36,103 nt of DNA from an uncultured Candidatus Saccharibacteria bacterium (GTDB lineage: Bacteria > Patescibacteriota > Minisyncoccia > UBA6257 > 2-01-FULL-56-20). Both the position numbers and the translations under genes were made by a program. The notes under the pieces were generated by a model that saw nothing but the letters and a program-made list of their open reading frames with translations, ran no database searches and was not told the DNA's origin. The DNA lies in contig CAYHXB010000004.1 in NCBI GenBank assembly GCA_964360535.1, forward strand, positions 1 through 36,103, in the 5' to 3' direction. Positions 3,813 to 36,103 of this stretch are shown here, piece after piece (within the stretch, counting starts at the first letter, position 1; every line of letters begins with the position of its first letter).

Positions 3813-4172
3813 ATGCTTCAATTCATTTTGACAACGATTTTGATGGCATCGCTTGGAACGATGCTTTATCTCGTGGCCCGTTCTTTGCCGCGCGTCGGCG
3901 AAGAAACTTCCGGCAAGCAAAATCTTTTGGACCGCCTGTCTTCTTCCGAGATTCCGGAAAAAATAGACGCGGCTTTCAATGCTTTTCTTCTTAAGTCGTT
4001 AAGGAAAACGAAAGTCGTTTTGATGAAAGTGGACAATTTCATCAACGACAAACTCAAAAGAGTTTCGCCTAACGGCAACGGCAAGCCGAAGATAGATTTC
4101 AAGGACTTAGCTGAAACAAGCGAGGAAAAAACGGAAGAAACATCATCCAATAAGGAAGTTGATTCAGTTTAG
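3813..4172 (+). CDS. Hypothetical small membrane-anchored protein
   Basis: One N-terminal hydrophobic helix followed by a charged, low-complexity C-terminus. No recognisable family. Confidence 0.45.
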   Translation: MLQFILTTILMASLGTMLYLVARSLPRVGEETSGKQNLLDRLSSSEIPEKIDAAFNAFLLKSLRKTKVVLMKVDNFINDKLKRVSPNGNGKPKIDFKDLAETSEEKTEETSSNKEVDSV

Positions 4173-4198
4173 AGACCCCTATTTCTGCTTTTATTTTG

Positions 4199-4282
4199 TG
4201 CGTCGGGTAGGATTCGAACCTACGAAGCCCATAGGGCGATAGATTTACAGTCTATTGCGATTGACCACTCCGCCACCGACGC
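4199..4282 (-). tRNA. tRNA-Tyr (anticodon GTA), long variable arm, CCA not encoded
   Basis: Manual cloverleaf on the minus strand: acceptor GCGTCGG/CCGACGC; D arm GCGG-AGTGGTCAA-TCGC; anticodon arm ATAGA-CTGTAAA-TCTAT; 15-nt variable arm; T arm GTAGG-TTCGAAT-CCTAC; discriminator A. Confidence 0.9.
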
Positions 4283-4286
4283 ATTT

Positions 4287-4391
4287 TAAAATTATCTTTC
4301 TCTTACCGTTGGACATACCTGCGTAGCCCATTGGCCACCCACCGCCGTAGGCGGGGCCCCGCTTTAGCGGTGGTCCGCCACCGACGCATTT
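4287..4391 (-). repeat. Duplicated tRNA-Tyr 5' fragment plus a GC-rich double-hairpin element
   Basis: The 18-nt TCCGCCACCGACGCATTT occurs at 4269-4286 (the real tRNA 5' end plus 4 nt of leader) and again at 4374-4391. The spacer between the copies contains element 4331-4373, which is nearly identical in reverse complement to 12788-12829. Confidence 0.7.
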
Positions 4392-4474
4392 AACTATCGG
4401 GCTTAATTATTGTCCGAATCTGGAGTTTTTTCAATACCACCACTAGCAGGGCTACTTTATGATATAATTTCAAT

Positions 4475-5341
4475 ATGACAATGAGCACCATAGAAAAAAC
4501 AAATCTCTTTACGCGTAAAACCAAAACCAAAGCAGACGTGATTTTGGGAGATTGTTTAGAGGTGCTTAAAACTATGCCCGACGGTAGCATTGATCTTATA
4601 GTGACTTCGCCACCATATGCCGATCAGCGTAAAAAGACATATGGCGGTATCAATCCAGACAAATATGCTGAATGGTTTTTGCCGATTACCAAAGAATTGC
4701 TTCGCGTTATGCGGCCGACCGGCACGTTCATACTCAATATCAAAGAAAAAGTGGTTGATTGCGAGCGCCATACCTACGTAATGGAGCTAATTATTAACAT
4801 GAGAAAGCAGGGCTGGTTCTGGACGGAAGAGTTTATTTGGCACAAGAAAAACTGCTACCCTGGCAAGTGGCCGAACCGTTTCCGTGATTCATGGGAGCGT
4901 ATACTTCAATTCAACAAACAAAAAAATTTCACTATGTATCAAGAAGAAGTAATGGTGCCGATGGGGAACTGGGCGAAAACGCGACTCAAGAATTTAAGCA
5001 ATACAGACAAGACAAGAGACAACTCAAAAGTCGGTAGTGGTTTCGGTAAAAACGTTTCAAGGTGGGTTGGACGAGATATGGCGTATCCTACGAATGTGCT
5101 TGTCATGGCAACAGAGACATCTAATAAACAACACAGCGCGGTATTTCCCAAGGAACTTCCAGCATGGTTTATCAAACTCTTCACGAAACCCGGTGATGTC
5201 GTCCTTGATCCGTTTCTCGGAGCGGGAACTACTTCCATTACCGCATTTGAACTTGATCGTAGTTCAATTGGTATTGAAATAAAAGAAGAATATTATAATC
5301 TGGCTATTAAAAATATCCGAGAACAAACGACGCAATTATGA
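4475..5341 (+). CDS. Beta-class amino DNA methyltransferase (N4-cytosine or N6-adenine), type II R-M
   Basis: Catalytic motif IV TSPPY is N-terminal and the AdoMet motif I DPFLGAGTT is C-terminal. This is the permuted order typical of the ParB-less N4/N6 MTase family (N6_N4_Mtase). Confidence 0.85.
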   Translation: MTMSTIEKTNLFTRKTKTKADVILGDCLEVLKTMPDGSIDLIVTSPPYADQRKKTYGGINPDKYAEWFLPITKELLRVMRPTGTFILNIKEKVVDCERHTYVMELIINMRKQGWFWTEEFIWHKKNCYPGKWPNRFRDSWERILQFNKQKNFTMYQEEVMVPMGNWAKTRLKNLSNTDKTRDNSKVGSGFGKNVSRWVGRDMAYPTNVLVMATETSNKQHSAVFPKELPAWFIKLFTKPGDVVLDPFLGAGTTSITAFELDRSSIGIEIKEEYYNLAIKNIREQTTQL

Positions 5342-6102
5342 AAAAACTAAATTATAAAAAATTAAACACCTTTATCGTTTCCGATGTCATTCGGCCATTT
5401 TATGAAATACGATTTGAAGCTTTAAAAGTTATAAAATTAAAAAACGTAGCAAAACGAAAGAACCCCTATCTTTTCAAAGCAAAAAACGTAGAAACCGCTG
5501 GCGACCTTGCAAAGAATATTCTTGATGCGTTTTTGTCGTCGCAAGAAGAAACGATATTTGGCGATCTTATGGAAAACCTTGCTATCAATGTGTGCAAACA
5601 AGTTTTTAAGGGTAAGAAAGCAGAGCAAGCTAAATATCGTAGCATAGACCTAATCTTCGAACGCGATGGGAAAATATACATTGTTGGTATCAAATCTGGA
5701 CCAAATTGGGGCAATAGCGACCAAGTCAACGCAATGAAACGTAATTTCGCGATTGCAAAAAAAATTATTCGCGCAGCACGCGGTAAAAAAACCGAGATTA
5801 TTGCCGTTAATGGATGTATTTATGGCCGCGATAATCAAGCATACAAGATTGATAAGAAAAATAAAGACCAAAATTATTACAAGCTATGTGGACAATCCTT
5901 TTGGGAACTTGTTTCTGGCGACAGTCAACTTTATAAAACAATTATCCAGCCACTTGATGCTGAAGCGAAAAAACGCGACCAGACATTCAAAGACCTCTAT
6001 GCGGAAAAAATAAATGAAATGACAAAAGATATTATAGAACTTTTTTACACCAAAAGTCGCCTTGATTGGGACAAGATTGTAGAATACGTTTCTAAGAAAT
6101 AG
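5338..6102 (+). CDS. Putative type II restriction endonuclease partner of the methyltransferase
   Basis: ATGA-coupled to the methyltransferase and similarly AT-rich. A PD-(D/E)xK-like stretch is possible (IDLIFERDGKIYIVGIKSG). The family assignment was not verified. Confidence 0.5.
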   Translation: MKKLNYKKLNTFIVSDVIRPFYEIRFEALKVIKLKNVAKRKNPYLFKAKNVETAGDLAKNILDAFLSSQEETIFGDLMENLAINVCKQVFKGKKAEQAKYRSIDLIFERDGKIYIVGIKSGPNWGNSDQVNAMKRNFAIAKKIIRAARGKKTEIIAVNGCIYGRDNQAYKIDKKNKDQNYYKLCGQSFWELVSGDSQLYKTIIQPLDAEAKKRDQTFKDLYAEKINEMTKDIIELFYTKSRLDWDKIVEYVSKK

Positions 6103-7234: not shown

Positions 7235-7292
7235 ACTTTATAACTTTTCCGCCAGAGGCGGATCCGCCTTCGGCGGAAAACTTTATAACTTT
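7235..7292. repeat. 30-nt double-hairpin palindrome (TCCGCC-N3-GGCGGATCCGCC-N3-GGCGGA) flanked by a 13-bp direct repeat
   Basis: Element at 7248-7277. ACTTTATAACTTT occurs at 7235-7247 and again at 7280-7292. A second copy of the element lies at 797-826 inside mnmA. Confidence 0.7.
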
Positions 7293-12566: not shown

Positions 12567-12853
12567 ATGGGCGTATAGCTCAATGGCACCCTCCAAAGGC
12601 GGGCAGGGAGCTCCCGAGCTTACAGTTTGGAACGAGGCAGGTGTAAAAAAGCCAACCTTTTTTATTTCTGCCGAGTGAACAAATTGATGAAATGCGAAGC
12701 ATTTCATATACCTTGAGGATCGGAATATTGAATTTTGGGGTGGGCCAGGAGTAGTATTTACAAGTAAACAATGGGCCAGTAGCTTATCACCGCTATAGCG
12801 GGACCCCGCCATCGGCGGTGGGTGGCTAAAGCAGAAATTAGAATATTAAACAT
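12567..12853 (+). repeat. tRNA-Ile 5' pseudo-fragment followed by an about 265-nt hairpin-rich spacer containing the shared GC double-hairpin element
   Basis: 12567-12588 (ATGGGCGTATAGCTCAATGGCA) matches 12852-12873 at 21 of 22 positions. The D-stem 3' strand is missing after the first copy, so it is not a functional tRNA. Element 12788-12829 matches the reverse complement of 4331-4373. Several strong hairpins are present, for example ATGAAATGC-GAA-GCATTTCAT. Confidence 0.65.
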
Positions 12854-12925
12854 GGGCGTATAGCTCAACGGCAGAGCACGAAGCTTATACCTTCGCGGTT
12901 CTAGGTTCGAATCCTAGTGCGCCCA
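12854..12925 (+). tRNA. tRNA-Ile with genomically encoded anticodon TAT (UAU)
   Basis: Manual cloverleaf: acceptor GGGCGTA/TGCGCCC; D arm GCTC-AACGGCA-GAGC; anticodon arm CGAAG-CTTATAC-CTTCG, which places TAT at positions 34-36 (12886-12888); T arm CTAGG-TTCGAAT-CCTAG; discriminator A. No CCA is encoded. Confidence 0.85.
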
Positions 12926-12969
12926 CATTAGATTTTGTTAGTGCGGAAGCGCGTTACAAAATCTTATGT

Positions 12970-13006
12970 CCCGCAGAATGCGGGGCAGATCCCGCCATCG
13001 GCGGGG
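12970..13006. repeat. Tandem GC-rich tri-loop hairpins (CCCGCA-GAA-TGCGGG and CCCGCC-ATC-GGCGGG)
   Basis: Read directly. The architecture is the same as the elements at 12788-12829 and 4331-4373. Confidence 0.6.
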
Positions 13007-13020
13007 CTAAAATTTATAAG

Positions 13021-15109: not shown

Positions 15110-15436
15110 ATGAACTTACTCAAAGTAACAAAAGATAAGGCAATAAAAGCACTACTGGGAAAGGCGACTGTTCCAAGCGGGCTTTATGAGCTTAATAAAT
15201 ATTTCAGGCAGTATGGTCCGATTGAATTTAAGCATCATAAAGATGATGGTCTTATAATTTCTGTTAGTACCAATTTTAAATATGGAAGCATAATTGCCCA
15301 CGGACGCAACTTGGAAGAGCTTGATAAAAACGTGAGAGACGCGATTTTGACTTCATTTGAAGTTCCTTCTTCCTATAAAAAGGAAGCCGCTATAGTTAAG
15401 GAGGGGGAACGGCAGAACGCCTATGCCCTCGCTTAG
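15110..15436 (+). CDS. hicB: HicB-like antitoxin
   Basis: Size, position, and a 14-nt overlap with the hicA-like gene. The pattern G.Y.......G....HG.NLEEL..NVRDAI fits the HicB N-terminal fold. Confidence 0.55.
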   Translation: MNLLKVTKDKAIKALLGKATVPSGLYELNKYFRQYGPIEFKHHKDDGLIISVSTNFKYGSIIAHGRNLEELDKNVRDAILTSFEVPSSYKKEAAIVKEGERQNAYALA

Positions 15437-15668
15437 TGAATTACCCGGAGAAATTAAGCAGAATCGTTTTTGTAAAGCCCTTAAAAGGGTAGGTTTTGAA
15501 ATTAATAAGGTGGGCGGAGATGGTAGCCATTTTAAGGCAATATGGCCAAGAAATCAGAAATCGGTAACTATACCTTACGATCTTCCTAAGCAAACATTAA
15601 AATATATTCTTAAAGAATTAGAAGAAATAAGCGGAGTTGATTGGAATCAAATTAAAAAAGAACTATAA
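15423..15668 (+). CDS. hicA: HicA-like (YcfA family) mRNA interferase toxin
   Basis: [22 protein letters not shown]...[19 protein letters not shown] matches the YcfA/HicA pattern (GSH, vTiP, gTl..IlkqaG). Confidence 0.7.
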
Positions 15669-23516: not shown

Positions 23517-23605
23517 TGTTATAATCAGTAGCGAGGAGTGAAGTGAAAGTTTAGTAATTTCCACTTCAGCCGAACGCCCTGATTAATGAAGCGGAGCTTC
23601 ATATA
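23517..23605 (+). promoter_or_regulatory. Pilus-associated structured repeat, copy 1 (extended -10 TGTTATAAT plus conserved hairpin module) upstream of pilB
   Basis: TATAATCAGTAGCGAGGAGT-[stem-loop]-AGCCGAACGCCCTGATTAATGA-[ATGAAGC-GGA-GCTTCAT]-ATAAT aligns with 28731-28812 and 28813-28901. Confidence 0.7.
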
Positions 23606-23624
23606 ATTAACCAAACATAAAACA

Positions 23625-24857
23625 ATGCGCGACATAAAAGCTCTCAAAACGCTGATTGAAAGCAAGCTCGGCAAAAAAATGGAATCCACTTCAGTTGTGG
23701 AATTCGTGGATCTTTTCATAGAATACGCTTACAGTTCCAAATCTTCGGACATACACATAGAGCCGGCAGCGGAAATAGTGAGAATCCGCTTCCGCGTTGA
23801 CGGCATGCTTCGTGACATTCTTGAAAAAGGAGTTCCGAAAACTTTGCACCAGGAAATAATCACACGCATCAAAGTGCTTGCCGGCCTGCGCACCGACGAG
23901 CATCTTTTGCCCCAGGATGGCCGCTTCAGGACGAAAATAGAAGGATTTGGCGAAGTGGATGTCCGCGTTTCAATAATGCCGACATACCACGGCGAAAACG
24001 CGGTTTTGAGAATTCTTGCCGAAACAAGAGCGTACGACCTCAACAGCTTGGGTTTCTCAAAAAGCGATTTGGAAAAAGTAAAGCGCGCCATAATCAAGCC
24101 CTACGGCATGATTCTCGCCAACGGCCCGACTGGTTCCGGCAAAACAACCACGCTTTACACAATTTTGAAAACTCTTAACAGGCCGGAAGTTTCCGTAATA
24201 ACGATTGAAGACCCGATAGAATATTCGCTGGAAGGAACCAACCAGATTCAGGTGGACAACAAAGCCGGACTGACGTTCGCCAACGGCCTGAGGTCAATTT
24301 TGCGGCAAGACCCGAACATCGTAATGGTCGGAGAAATACGCGATACGGAAACGGCGGACATCGCTGTCAATGCGTCTTTGACCGGCCACCTCGTTTTATC
24401 CACGCTTCACACGAATGACGCCGCCACGACTTTCCCCCGCCTGATTGATATGGGAGTGCCACCGTTCCTTGCGGCCTCTACGGTGAATATCGCCATGGGG
24501 CAGAGATTGGTGAGAACAATCTGCCAGAATTGCAAAAAGGAACGCACCCTCAACGATGAAGAACTGGCAAGCTTGAAAGAATTGATTCCGGACGTAAGCG
24601 ATAAAACAAAAACTTTTTATATCGGCGCCGGATGCGAAAAATGCGGCAATTCCGGCTATGAGGGCAGAATAGGCATCCGCGAAGTTTTGGAAATTACCGA
24701 CAAAATACGCGACCTTATAATGTCGCGCGCAAACGCGACCCAGATAAAAGACGAGGCCGTAAAGAACGGAATGACAACTATGCTTCAGGACGGCTTGGAT
24801 AAAGCCAAGCAAGGAATCACGACCATAGAAGAAGTTTTGAGGATTATTCATGAATAA
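23625..24857 (+). CDS. pilB: Type IV pilus assembly ATPase (PilB/GspE family), short form
   Basis: Walker A GPTGSGKTTT, Asp box, Walker B MVGEIRD, His box LSTLHTND, and a tetracysteine CxxC...CxxC motif. Confidence 0.9.
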   Translation: MRDIKALKTLIESKLGKKMESTSVVEFVDLFIEYAYSSKSSDIHIEPAAEIVRIRFRVDGMLRDILEKGVPKTLHQEIITRIKVLAGLRTDEHLLPQDGRFRTKIEGFGEVDVRVSIMPTYHGENAVLRILAETRAYDLNSLGFSKSDLEKVKRAIIKPYGMILANGPTGSGKTTTLYTILKTLNRPEVSVITIEDPIEYSLEGTNQIQVDNKAGLTFANGLRSILRQDPNIVMVGEIRDTETADIAVNASLTGHLVLSTLHTNDAATTFPRLIDMGVPPFLAASTVNIAMGQRLVRTICQNCKKERTLNDEELASLKELIPDVSDKTKTFYIGAGCEKCGNSGYEGRIGIREVLEITDKIRDLIMSRANATQIKDEAVKNGMTTMLQDGLDKAKQGITTIEEVLRIIHE

Positions 24858-28727: not shown

Positions 28728-28812
28728 TGCTATAATCAGTAGTGAGGAGTGGGATAAAAATTTATTAATTTTTATCCCAGCCGAACGCCCTGATTAATGA
28801 TGCGCAGCTTCA
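28728..28812 (+). promoter_or_regulatory. Pilus-associated structured repeat, copy 2 (extended -10 TGCTATAAT)
   Basis: Same conserved blocks as copy 1. The central stem is GGGATAAAAA / TTTTTATCCC, entirely different in sequence but still base-paired. Confidence 0.7.
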
Positions 28813-28901
28813 TATAATCAGTAGCGAGGAGTAAAGTGAAAATTTAACAAATTTTTACTTCAGCCGAACGCCCTGATTAATGAAACCTGCAAGGTTTCAT
28901 T
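28813..28901 (+). promoter_or_regulatory. Pilus-associated structured repeat, copy 3, in tandem with copy 2 and upstream of pilA
   Basis: Same conserved blocks. The central stem is AAGTGAAAA / TTTTTACTT and the 3' hairpin is TGAAACCT-GC-AAGGTTTCA. Confidence 0.7.
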
Positions 28902-28947: not shown

Positions 28948-29394
28948 ATGAATTCAAAAAGAGGTTTTACCTTAATAGAGCTTTTGGTGGTAATCGGAAT
29001 AATCGCAATTTTGGCGGCTGTCGTTATTGTCGCTCTGAATCCGGCCAGGCAATTCGCCCAGGCAAGAAACACTCAAAGACAATCGAATATTCTTGCGATT
29101 CTTAACGCCATTGGCCAGAACATTGCTGACAACAAAGGAATTTTCACTTGCGCCGCCGGAGCCATTCCATCGTCGACAACCAAGATGGCAACTAGCACTT
29201 ACGATATCGCCGGATGTTTGGTTCCGACCTATCTGCCGAATATGCCATTTGACCCGTCGGCTGCGGGCGCTCATTGGACAAGCGTTTCGGACTACGATTC
29301 TGGCTACGAAGTGTCAGTATCAACAAGCACCAGCAGGGTGACTGTTAACGCGCCAGCTACGGAGCTTAGTCAGGTTATTTCACTTACGCGTTAA
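28948..29394 (+). CDS. pilA: Type IV major pilin (PilA-like)
   Basis: The MNSKRG|FTLIELLVVIGIIAILAAVV cleavage/methylation motif, small size, and Thr/Ser-rich C-terminus. Confidence 0.85.
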   Translation: MNSKRGFTLIELLVVIGIIAILAAVVIVALNPARQFAQARNTQRQSNILAILNAIGQNIADNKGIFTCAAGAIPSSTTKMATSTYDIAGCLVPTYLPNMPFDPSAAGAHWTSVSDYDSGYEVSVSTSTSRVTVNAPATELSQVISLTR

Positions 29395-34183: not shown

Positions 34184-36103
34184 TTTTCAAAAAAGAGAAA
34201 GTGGTTGTTTTATCTCTCTTTCTGATAGTTTCTCTGCTCGGCCAGGGTCAGTTTGTTCCGAAGGCGGAAGCTGCCGTTGGTCCACTATGTTCAGGCCCGC
34301 TAGAAAGTTTTCCCATTCCAGAATTTATTAAAAGCACGGTTCGCGTAAAAAGCGTAGATTCGCGAACTTCGAAGGTTGACGTTACTTCATCCGGTTATGT
34401 GCAAAAAGCTAGATGTAAAAGTACGGTAATTGGGGGTTACAAACCAGTTGTCTACGCGGACGGCTATATATATTATGTTGCGTCGGGCCGGAAGTTTGAC
34501 GGCTCATTAGTAGGCGCAAAAAACTATAATTATAATAATGATGCTGATGCTATGCCGCCGAACTCTTCGTCCATAAATATAGCGCGAAACAGCAATATCA
34601 TTCATGTTACGCCGACAAAGTGTGTGAGTAGCGTAGATGAAGGCTTTCGGGATACCACTTCAAAAGTAGAATGCATTACTTACGGCTTGTCGGCGGACGG
34701 ACGTGTCGGAACGGCGCATTATGAGCGTGAAGAGAAGAGTGACGGATGGTGGACTGTTGTTGCGGCGATCGGACTAGCTGCGGTTGGGTTAAGTTTCGGA
34801 GTAGATTTAACGGGTATTTTAGGAGGTGTGATTGGTGAAGGAGGAGTAGCAATAGGCGCTATTGGCTTGCAGGAAATTGCCGTATCTGCAGTAACAACAT
34901 TAGGCAGTTCGGCTCTCACGTCTCTTGGCGGCGCGCCGTCGGTCGCAGGCGTCGGTTCATTGGCAATTATTGGCGCAGGAATCTCTGCTACTATCGCGAC
35001 AGCAATAAACGAAATTTCCCAAACAGCGCCGCTTGACACAGTCGAAGAATCCATAAGCGGCACAGGCGCGGCCGCCAGCGTCGGAACCTGGACCTGGTCT
35101 CCTATACCGGAGGCGCCGCCGACACCCGTATCGCCGCTGCCGAATTGTTCTTTTTTGTCTGACCCGGATTTAATAACCAAAGGCCAATCGTCGCTTCTCG
35201 TATGGGGATGTCAAAATGTTGATTCTTGCTCGATAGATAATGGAATTGGTACGGTCCCTGCAGTAAGCGGTAAAAACTTTAGTGTAAGTCCCGCTCAAAC
35301 AACAACATATAATCTCTCCTGTACCGGTCCTGGGGGAAGCGCTTCGTTTCCCGCAACTGTCAATGTTACTCCAGCTCTTCCGGACCTTACTACAGGAAAT
35401 ACGACCATAGTTCCTTCTCCCGGCGCGACTGGACAAAGCGAATCATTTTCCGCCACAGTTTCAAATATCGGCACCGGCAATGCAAACAATTCCTTCCCGA
35501 GCTTCTTCCAGATAACGAATGAAGCTAAGTCGCAAGTTGTCGCGACCACGAGCGCCACTTCAATATCGTCCCTTGCCGCGGGCGCTTCGATTACCGTCTC
35601 CGGCTCATATATATTCGGTTCTCCTGGCGCCTACAACGTCCGCGCATGTGCGAATTATACAGACATGTGGTCCGGCTCTACCATTACGGAAACCGATATG
35701 AATAACAACTGCGGCGGCGCGGGCGCGTATACAGCCGTGACAATATCTGCACCCGCCACGCCGACTTGTCAGGATACCGCTGCTAATAACTTCAATGGGG
35801 CGTTGCCATGCGTTTATGCGCCAACGCCACCTCCCGTCAACGGCGGCTGGAGCGACTGGAGCGCTCGTGCCACTGATTGCGGAAGAACCGGGACGCAGAC
35901 GCGTGCCTGCACCAATCCCGCTCCTGCGGACGGCGGAGCCGATTGTTCAGGGCCGAGTTCGCAAACTTACAGCACGTCCGCGTGTCCCGTCAACGGCGGC
36001 TGGACTGGCTGGAGCTCCTGCAGCGTGACTGCTTGCGGAAGAACCGGGACGCAGACGCGTACTTGCACCAATCCCGCTCCTGCTAACGGCGGCGCGAGTT
36101 GTT
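34180..36103 (+). CDS. Large surface protein (partial; 3' end outside the window): signal/TM, Gly/Ala-rich hydrophobic region, Ig-like and CARDB-like domains, tandem thrombospondin type-1-like repeats
   Basis: I translated frame 1 from ATG 34180 to base 36102 by hand and found no stop codon (641 codons). The ORF is not in the supplied track because it never terminates in the window. It begins MIFKKEKVVVLSLFLIVSLLGQG and ends ...NGGWSDWSARATDCGRTGTQTRACTNPAPADGGADCSGPSSQTYSTSACPVNGGWTGWSSCSVTACGRTGTQTRTCTNPAPANGGASC. Confidence 0.85.
   Translation, partial: MIFKKEKVVVLSLFLIVSLLGQGQFVPKAEAAVGPLCSGPLESFPIPEFIKSTVRVKSVDSRTSKVDVTSSGYVQKARCKSTVIGGYKPVVYADGYIYYVASGRKFDGSLVGAKNYNYNNDADAMPPNSSSINIARNSNIIHVTPTKCVSSVDEGFRDTTSKVECITYGLSADGRVGTAHYEREEKSDGWWTVVAAIGLAAVGLSFGVDLTGILGGVIGEGGVAIGAIGLQEIAVSAVTTLGSSALTSLGGAPSVAGVGSLAIIGAGISATIATAINEISQTAPLDTVEESISGTGAAASVGTWTWSPIPEAPPTPVSPLPNCSFLSDPDLITKGQSSLLVWGCQNVDSCSIDNGIGTVPAVSGKNFSVSPAQTTTYNLSCTGPGGSASFPATVNVTPALPDLTTGNTTIVPSPGATGQSESFSATVSNIGTGNANNSFPSFFQITNEAKSQVVATTSATSISSLAAGASITVSGSYIFGSPGAYNVRACANYTDMWSGSTITETDMNNNCGGAGAYTAVTISAPATPTCQDTAANNFNGALPCVYAPTPPPVNGGWSDWSARATDCGRTGTQTRACTNPAPADGGADCSGPSSQTYSTSACPVNGGWTGWSSCSVTACGRTGTQTRTCTNPAPANGGASC
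35833..36103 (+). repeat. 153-bp (51-codon) tandem repeat encoding the TSP1-like modules
   Basis: CCCGTCAACGGCGGCTGG starts at 35833 and again at 35986. TGCGGAAGAACCGGGACGCAGACGCGT...TGCACCAATCCCGCTCCTGC is repeated almost exactly. The second unit is cut by the window end. Confidence 0.9.

Follow-up and report, generated by a model that had tools for sequence, protein, structure and literature searches.

Why are the first nucleotides of a tRNA gene present twice, 105 bp apart, with a GC-rich double hairpin standing between the two copies? The question is raised by the tRNA-Tyr locus of a 36,103-nt contig from an uncultured Candidatus Saccharibacteria bacterium (GCA_964360535.1, CAYHXB010000004.1), the whole of which is referred to below as the window. 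The hairpin is here called element E, and the loci of other genomes used for comparison are designated L with a number. In brief, the upstream copy is the remnant of a second tRNA-Tyr gene that is interrupted by E, and the region as a whole is probably, with considerable room for doubt, the scar of tRNA-specialised selfish DNA, consisting of a tRNA-targeting cassette with a GIY-YIG nuclease gene and a palindromic element, and now lacking an open reading frame (ORF).

ARAGORN and the Rfam tRNA model agree on two tRNA genes, tRNA-Tyr(GTA) on the minus strand (4198-4282) and tRNA-Ile(TAT) on the plus strand (12854-12926), from which it follows that the 18-nt repeat TCCGCCACCGACGCATTT consists of nt 1-14 of tRNA-Tyr and 4 nt of its leader. 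As the sequence-only reading of this DNA had claimed, the 18-mer is present in exactly two copies in the window, at 4269-4286 and 4374-4391, and it was found in none of 100 shuffles. The 105-bp arrangement recurs unchanged in L200 and L201, which are independent replicate assemblies of the same groundwater site, and this rules out an assembly artefact, and a 105-bp deletion variant was not seen in the contigs of the DNA sequencing runs.

Read along the minus strand, the module begins with repeat copy A (4374-4391), which is made up of the native leader end AAAT and nt 1-14 of the pseudo-tRNA-Tyr (4387-4374). Element E is inserted exactly after nt 14 (4339-4373) and is followed by the D-loop piece GTGGCCAAT, nt 15-23 of the pseudo-copy (4330-4338; identified by sequence, junction analysis and alignment). 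The anticodon arm of about 30 nt has been deleted after GTGGCCAAT, and the next piece, the 13-nt GGGCTACGCAGGT at 4317-4329, corresponds to the variable arm and the 5′ strand of the T-stem as judged from blastn-short and alignment. A 30-nt spacer (4287-4316), situated where relatives carry a GIY-YIG ORF, then separates the pseudo-copy from repeat copy B (4269-4286), that is, the leader AAAT (4286-4283) and nt 1-14 of the working gene. The latter is a class II tRNA with a score of 63.2 bits against the Rfam tRNA model, and its sequence is that of the tRNA-Tyr of L209.

The GGGCTACGCAGGT piece lies within a 15/15 blastn-short match to the tRNA-Tyr of L202, the closest relative, and represents the allele of L202, L053 and L216, whereas the window's own tRNA has GGGCTTCGTAGGT, which differs by 2 nt. 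By our estimate, a colinear 13-nt match between the 44-nt spacer and the 85-nt tRNA would be expected by chance about 3.5e-5 times. Since the working tRNA has the L209 sequence and the pseudo-copy piece that of the other allele, the two are different alleles, and neither is a recent tandem copy of the other. What lies upstream, behind the native promoter, is a second tRNA-Tyr gene in decay, which extends beyond the mere 5′ end; the earlier description of a duplicated 5′ end overlooked the retained nt 15-23 and the 13-nt variable-arm/T-stem piece of the other allele. No third copy of the 14-nt tRNA 5′ piece, such as might mark the far end of an island, was found in the window above chance.

The E copy at tRNA-Tyr is a 35-bp near-palindromic GC double hairpin, CCACCGC-TAAA-GCGGGG followed by CCCCGCC-TAC-GGCGGTGG. 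A covariance model built from the copies of other genomes matches 4339-4373 with 47.6 bits (E-value 1.3e-8) and thereby sets the true limits of the element; the sequence-only reading had recognised it and drawn it too long, at 4331-4373, where 4331-4338 belongs to the tRNA D-loop remnant. The model finds just one other full copy in the window besides that at 4339-4373 (minus strand), namely the tRNA-Ile twin at 12787-12821 on the plus strand, which the sequence-only reading had placed at 12788-12829. The two copies agree at about 29 of 35 positions, and one of the changes, C..G to T..A at the base of hairpin 1, is compensatory.

Beyond the window, when one genome per species was scanned for the exact core GCGGGNCCCCGCCNNNGGCGGTGG, at least 119 loci emerged, in comparison with roughly one expected by chance according to our estimate. 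Among the matches listed, nearly all loci belong to Patescibacteria of many lineages, and the few in GC-rich Actinobacteria are due to chance. The length is 35-36 bp in 84 of the 126 copies, which fall into three forms: A (CCACCGC..GCGGGG, then CCCCGCC..GGCGGTGG), A′ (opening with TCACCGC..GCGGGA) and B (opening with TCCCGC(C)..(G)GCGGGA). Hairpin 1 covaries, with C-G in 20 copies and U-A in 20 at columns 1/18, and A-U in 14, U-A in 11, C-G in 8 and G-C in one at columns 8/12; hairpin 2 is uninformative in this respect, being fixed by the search pattern. No Rfam family corresponds to E, the matches from the whole window and from a permissive search of 4100-4500 being the two tRNAs only, and no hits were obtained in viral contigs. 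Neither E nor GIY-YIG/tRNA cassettes in Patescibacteria were found described in open-access papers and bioRxiv preprints. E is a multi-copy mobile palindromic family that extends across Patescibacteria and is apparently undescribed in this literature.

The manner of insertion can be read from filled and empty sites. In a repeat of the Vogelbacteria locus L109, a filled site acctcg-E-caaagac is found together with an empty one, acctcgcaaagac, and a target duplication is absent; at tRNA-Tyr of the window, GGCGGA-E-GTGGCCAAT corresponds to GGCGGAGTGGTCAAT in the intact gene. When E is removed and its flanks are joined, a continuous tRNA match runs across the junction in 39 of 115 copies (34%), a minimum figure given a tRNA set of only 221 genes. 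The junction lies after nt 14 in the D-loop in 14 copies, which divide 10 to 4 between the two orientations, with two more after nt 12; it lies after nt 36 in the anticodon loop in 12 copies, with five more at nt 34-38, and in the T-loop in three or four. The non-tRNA copies number 79, and 31 of them are embedded in long ORFs. These remain open across the 36 nt (12 codons), with one frame preferred, and yield a peptide of the type [AT]TA[SF]GG[AV]P[PQ]xAV in either orientation of E. The flanks of form B resemble TT^C(N)A and those of A and A′ in tRNAs A^GTGG, and others vary. E therefore inserts precisely and without target duplication, both into redundant tRNA copies, at their D-, anticodon- and T-loops, and, in frame, into protein genes. 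The suggestion of a small element aimed at tRNA genes is borne out by these many further tRNA-associated copies; its supposed restriction to tRNA 5′ regions is contradicted by the same insertion sites.

Two GC double hairpins of a sister type are present elsewhere in the window. One, TTTCCGCC-CAA-GGCGGATCCGCC-CCG-GGCGGAAAA, is located in frame at 795-829 inside mnmA (725-1927), the gene of the tRNA 2-thiouridylase, where according to alignment it makes up an eight-residue insertion relative to the solved MnmA structures (ALLLSAQGGSAPGGKKYDVVG versus ALLLKEQG--------YDVIG). The other, 86-91% identical to the mnmA copy, occupies the gap between ackA and the phosphoketolase gene (7246-7280), has ACTTTATAACTTT on both flanks and forms with them a 42-nt imperfect palindrome.

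At the tRNA-Ile locus on the plus strand, a similar order of parts is seen in a weaker form. A degenerate tRNA 5′ piece, GGGCCAGTAGCTTA (12773-12786), which spans the acceptor strand through the D-stem, is identical to the corresponding GGGCGTATAGCTCA of tRNA-Ile at 10 of 14 positions, so that the earlier claim of a 5′ end duplicated at two tRNA genes holds exactly for tRNA-Tyr and in a degenerate manner only for tRNA-Ile. After pseudo-tRNA position 14 follows an E copy of form A′, TCACCGC-TATA-GCGGGA and CCCCGCC-ATC-GGCGGTGG (12787-12821; covariance model 49 bits, E-value 6.5e-9), then a D-loop/D-stem-like remnant, GTGGCTAAAGCA (12822-12833), and the functional tRNA-Ile(TAT) at 12854-12926 (68.8 bits with the Rfam tRNA model). 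With E taken out, the junction matches nt 7-26 of the tRNA, and in L210, in which the neighbouring gene is 84% identical, there is no E at this locus. The tRNA-Ile locus would thus represent an older, more decayed case of the arrangement at tRNA-Tyr.

Several other features surround this tRNA. The sequence TGGGCCAGGAGTAG at 12739-12752, 33 nt upstream of the pseudo-fragment, repeats its first 8 nt, TGGGCCAG, and may be a still older fragment, comparable to the nested fragments of L205. Just 3′ of the gene, at 12962-13010, there is a GC double hairpin, CCCGCAGAATGCGGG..CCCGCCATCGGCGGG, with a weak match of 12-14 bits to the E model. The UAU anticodon, which is uncommon for tRNA-Ile among bacteria, is also found in L210.

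How the tRNA-Tyr module came about is best approached through the relatives, a comparison with genomes lacking the insertion having already been proposed in the sequence-only reading. The syntenic order is rpsB-tsf-orf119-tRNA-Tyr, and the site is empty in L202 (orf119 91% identical), L207 (5′ side only), L215 and L217. Occupied sites are of several kinds. The syntenic loci L030, L044 and L053 have, after rpsB-tsf-orf119, the fragment with E, a GIY-YIG ORF of 80-95 codons and tRNA-Tyr; in L087 the cassette is cut off by the contig end. The same fragment-E-ORF-tRNA build is found at other places in L009, L054, L080 and L114, in the case of L009 without detectable synteny. Forms without the ORF are represented by the window, L035, L034, L088, L040, L019, L205 and L209. 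The L209 fragment has a palindrome other than E, GCGTC[CCAGCCCGAGGTTGG..]GGTGGCGG, followed by 13 nt and the tRNA, and L205 has a fragment of the L209 type and a second one interrupted by CCTGCCTGCCGGCAGGCAGG. At the orf119-tRNA-Tyr locus, presence is therefore sporadic, with empty, ORF-less and GIY-bearing relatives all found.

The orientation of the module also differs among these loci. It points towards orf119 in the window and L202 and is co-directional with orf119 in L030, L044, L053, L205, L207, L209, L215 and L217. One contig of sequencing run X4 has 4064-4115 fused to 4434-4351 of the opposite strand (the module spanning about 4116-4434), which means that a near relative with the fragment and E has the other orientation; an 8-bp inverted repeat considered at the inversion breakpoints was dropped, as the coordinates did not bear it out. 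In L207 (2460-2660), the tRNA-Tyr 3′ end and a 25-nt trailer, ATTCCTACCCGACGCACACGAAAACAAAATGCTCT, are found again about 190 nt downstream, in a region where an 87-aa ORF without a Pfam match is called and which looks like a different, 3′-side duplication of the same tRNA. On the other side of the window's module, between the tRNA-Tyr promoter and ackA, lies an EcoO109I-type restriction-modification pair (N6_N4 methylase and RE_EcoO109I; 4475-6102), and since ackA directly follows the tRNA-Tyr region in L202 and L209, the pair looks inserted in the lineage of the window.

The ORF in the cassettes of the relatives encodes a stand-alone GIY-YIG catalytic domain of 79-95 aa (PF01541, E-value 1e-18). 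The solved structures nearest to it are those of two UPF0213 proteins, BH0048 (1zg2, E-value 1e-11) and EF2693 (1ywl), with SLX1 coming next, and the columns Y, G, R, H and E are invariant, which fits an active nuclease. The link to tRNA genes was assessed in 80 metagenome loci of this subgroup drawn without regard to E or tRNA. A co-oriented tRNA adjoins the ORF in 57 of them, starting between -12 and +74 nt after it and mostly at 0-20; these are tRNAs for Ser (23), Tyr (12), Glu (12) and Pro (5), with a few others. Among the 71 loci with enough upstream sequence, a copy of the first 12 nt of the tRNA is present upstream in 36 and a CCGCCnnnGGCGG hairpin upstream of the ORF in 40, and the density of GC hairpin motifs is 7.0 per kb over the 260 nt preceding the ORF and 0.71 per kb in the rest of the loci. 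The proteins also follow the tRNA type, as nearest neighbours share the amino acid in 49 of 77 cases, in comparison with a mean of 20 and a maximum of 36 in 2000 shuffles, when only pairs below 90% identity (median 64%) are counted. Some loci have a single hairpin instead of the doublet, and several ORFs lack a stop codon of their own and terminate only within the D-loop of the tRNA. In a tRNA-Pro type, the intact gene is located upstream of the ORF and a full-length copy with the D-arm replaced by a GC hairpin downstream. Duplicated tRNA sequence, GC hairpins and a small GIY-YIG gene are thus widely associated with one another, and their presence among relatives is patchy.

The D-arm-replaced copies downstream of the ORF in L141, L178 and L194, in which an 8-bp hairpin, GCCCCGCC-nnn-GGCGGGGC, takes the place of the arm, are called as tRNA-Pro by ARAGORN.

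Transcription of the tRNA-Tyr module probably starts ahead of the pseudo-copy. The best site in a promoter scan, TTGAAA-17-AATAAT with 10 of 12 matches (4406-4434, minus strand), and the conserved block TTCGGACAATAATTAA are both upstream of copy A, and the alignment shows the -10 region GGACAATAATT to be kept in relatives. The same promoter and leader directly adjoin the intact tRNA in L202, L207, L215 and L217. The scan detected no promoter-like site between E and tRNA-Tyr, and pseudo-copy, E and tRNA are therefore probably contained in one transcript. No terminator is predicted at E and there is no T-run 3′ of it. In the predicted minimum-energy fold of leader and tRNA (z-score -2.0), the 3′ strand of the tRNA pairs with copy A and not with the true 5′ end, which we read as a by-product of the duplication that would have no function.

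The explanation favoured here, in which the region is what is left of a tRNA-targeting cassette and a palindromic element, would proceed as follows. A GIY-YIG/tRNA cassette would have made the second tRNA copy, probably via break repair or gene conversion, for which the conserved tRNA sequence would offer a portable homology. E would then settle in the copy once it had become redundant, with a preference for tRNA-loop sequences such as A^GTGG, and would survive in a redundant copy only, because the cell would not outlive an insertion into its only copy. Later deletion of the nuclease ORF would have produced the compact 105-bp form, in which pseudo-copy and E, without a function of their own, would be transcribed as a long leader and probably removed by RNase P. 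Several points weigh against this course of events. The 36-kb window has no GIY-YIG, transposase or integrase/recombinase ORF, and a past GIY-YIG gene at this site is something we infer from the relatives only. An anchored comparison of the spacer with the GIY-YIG 3′ ends of 19 tRNA-Tyr cassettes was not significant (p 0.135); a MAFFT alignment had put the spacer there, which counts as weak evidence, and its candidature as a remnant of the ORF 3′ end was given up on this account. Some of the ORF-less spacers are only 13 nt long, as in L209, and the palindromes other than E in L205 and L209 indicate that duplication and E are separable and that the duplication may arise without the nuclease gene. 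A bare domain of about 80 aa has no obvious means of site recognition and the working tRNA in the cassette keeps an intact target sequence, both of which fit classical homing poorly. An enzyme that moves E was not identified, and the family was sampled through its exact core.

A more ambitious version, which we hold only tentatively and think less likely to be right than wrong by a good distance, is that E and the miniature protein are the two parts of a single mobile system. The protein would act as an SLX1-like structure-specific nuclease that cuts the extruded hairpin loops of highly transcribed tRNA genes and of palindromes, the hairpin or the whole cassette would be copied in during repair, and the duplicated tRNA would be a portable homology arm that allows movement between distant Patescibacteria without flanking homology. 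The converse, in which the nuclease takes no part in the duplication, is somewhat less probable again and is regarded as unlikely: a break in a tRNA loop, followed by template switching or break-induced copying, would leave behind the palindrome together with a partial tRNA, and the GIY-YIG gene would settle there later, since a strong tRNA promoter would express it. This would account for the frequency of the eight ORF-less forms listed above, the spacers down to 13 nt, the different palindromes held by the fragments of close relatives and a spacer without a detectable GIY-YIG remnant. It is, however, difficult to reconcile with E being inserted elsewhere without any duplication, with pseudo-copy and working copy being different tRNA alleles, with the GIY-YIG gene occupying exactly the gap in syntenic relatives, and with the adjoining tRNA in 57 of the 80 independently sampled loci.

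The remaining explanations are far less probable. The sequence-only reading had considered a structured RNA imitating the 5′ end of the tRNA, and a functional leader of this kind, in which the mimic and the hairpins would regulate how the tRNA is folded, processed by RNase P or expressed, would at least agree with the sole promoter-like site being upstream of copy A, with probable co-transcription of fragment and E, and with the pairing of copy A in the predicted fold. Yet the arrangement is missing from the closest relative L202 and from L215 and L217, unrelated palindromes take the place of E in L205 and L209, the pseudo-copies are decaying (the internal deletion in Tyr, 10/14 identity in Ile), E is also found in protein genes, it has no Rfam family and the fold z-score is modest at -2.0, all of which make a regulatory role very improbable. 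Slightly harder still to sustain is a remnant of an integrase-type integrative element with the tRNA 5′ end as attachment site, the repeats being leftover attL and attR. Foreign DNA flanked by a direct repeat of tRNA sequence and an adjoining restriction-modification system lacking in relatives are what such an element might leave, but integrase and recombinase domains are absent from the ORFs of the window, the repeats are just 105 bp apart with the restriction-modification genes outside them, the only cargo in relatives is the nuclease of 80-95 aa, and E is inside the repeated tRNA segment and not beside it. Least probable of all is that the tRNA 5′ region was simply duplicated in tandem on the spot and that the GC hairpin between the copies, perhaps a terminator or stabiliser, is unrelated to this, an outcome that the sequence-only reading had named as fatal to its own proposal. 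The direct repeats 105 bp apart and the resemblance of the other GC double hairpins of the window to terminators speak for it. The upstream flank, however, is not copied in the spacer, as the 30-nt spacer has no similarity to the native upstream region (p 0.64) and the same holds for the spacers of L205 and L209; the upstream copy is of the other allele and extends past the 5′ end; and the same 35-bp element is found at the same tRNA position at no fewer than 14 loci of different genomes, in both orientations. These results already refute a plain tandem duplication for the most part, and E also lacks the T-run and predicted terminator mentioned above.

Among described systems, E comes close to several and coincides with none. 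The Rickettsia palindromic elements, reportedly introduced by Ogata and colleagues in 2000, are repeats of about 100-150 bp known from Rickettsia. E resembles them as a selfish palindromic repeat of reduced genomes that is inserted in frame in protein genes and in RNA genes and encodes no transposase; it belongs to none of their sequence families of about 100-150 bp and differs in its size of 35-36 bp, its high GC content in AT-rich genomes, the absence of shared sequence, the preference for tRNA loops and the spread over many Patescibacteria lineages in contrast to a single genus. The REP and REPIN sequences, which are mobilised by RAYT transposases and have a GTAG or CGTC tag at one end (PMC3733652, PMC3184786), are likewise short GC-rich imperfect palindromes in multiple copies, often arranged as inverted doublets, that insert precisely and without target duplication. 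E, however, starts with CCACCGC, TCACCGC or TCCCGC and finishes with GGCGGTGG, so that the tag is lacking; it is not confined to extragenic DNA, with 31 of its 79 non-tRNA copies in long ORFs, and the partner protein is a GIY-YIG nuclease and not an HUH Y1 transposase, no RAYT or TnpA (Y1) domain being present in any ORF of the 36-kb window. With the hairpin elements of the IS200/IS605 type (PATE), which have terminal hairpins, do not require terminal inverted repeats and insert beside a fixed target of 4-5 nt, E shares precise filled and empty sites without target-site duplication; its own flanks differ with form and context, as given above.

Double-hairpin elements are also known from the mitochondria of Allomyces. 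The GC clusters of yeast mitochondria (PMC4478555) are a further parallel. Both kinds are mobile GC-rich hairpins of AT-rich genomes that occur near mobile endonuclease ORFs and in structural RNA genes, although they are organellar, eukaryotic and of other sequence families. A tRNA-loop preference in combination with a duplicated tRNA is not known for them.

As for the protein, fungal mitochondria contain mobile ORFs that carry a replacement for the end of the gene they enter. A free-standing GIY-YIG homing endonuclease, SegB, is encoded in a tRNA gene cluster of phage T4 (PMC2330249). The Patescibacteria cassettes are similar to such free-standing genes in their position beside or inside a conserved gene, their sporadic presence and the partial or whole duplication of the target, by which its function survives, and they have the catalytic domain and residues of homing cassettes. 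They differ in that the protein is the catalytic domain only, near UPF0213 and SLX1, without a separate DNA-binding domain, and that the ORF is often stopless and reads into the tRNA. In rRNA genes of the candidate phyla radiation (CPR), GIY-YIG-encoding insertions that are not introns have been found at the tops or bases of stem-loops, and the rRNA-gene GIY-YIG was concluded to be seemingly outside spread by homing (PMC11270868). Host group, protein family and the stem-loops of a structural RNA are thus the same as here, whereas that study is on rRNA genes only, and the words tRNA, hairpin and palindrome are absent from its text. An integrase-type element does not correspond to the data, there being no recombinase domain in the window and the repeat being the 5′ and not the 3′ end of the tRNA; nor does a tRNA intron, whether group I or bulge-helix-bulge, as an intact tRNA adjoins and the interrupted copy is without the anticodon arm and 3′ half.

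Three further features of the window lie apart from the tRNA loci. A sequence of about 45-91 nt is present in three copies of 82-88% identity (23517-23607, 28728-28818 and 28813-28884) upstream of type IV pilus genes, pilB-like at 23625 and pilin-like at 28948; each copy has TATAAT and a small hairpin, and the sequence may be a shared promoter or 5′ leader. GC-rich tandem repeats of about 153-156 nt and 88-90% identity (35832-36103) run into the window end. An 81-aa ORF with a HicA toxin domain (15423-15668) and an adjoining 108-aa ORF without a Pfam match (15110-15436) likely form a HicAB toxin-antitoxin pair.

In the tiny genomes of Patescibacteria a single tRNA gene may be essential, and yet the tRNA genes of these bacteria emerge as hot spots for selfish DNA of two linked kinds. 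The annotation of tRNAs can be misled by pseudo-tRNA fragments and by look-alike copies with hairpins of the kind described, conserved proteins carry 12-codon insertions that derive from the same element, and the small ORFs annotated as GIY-YIG family at such loci gain a genomic context. The 35-36-bp element is at the same time an easily searched marker of Patescibacteria. If the nuclease and the hairpin do cooperate, they would constitute a new route of DNA mobility.

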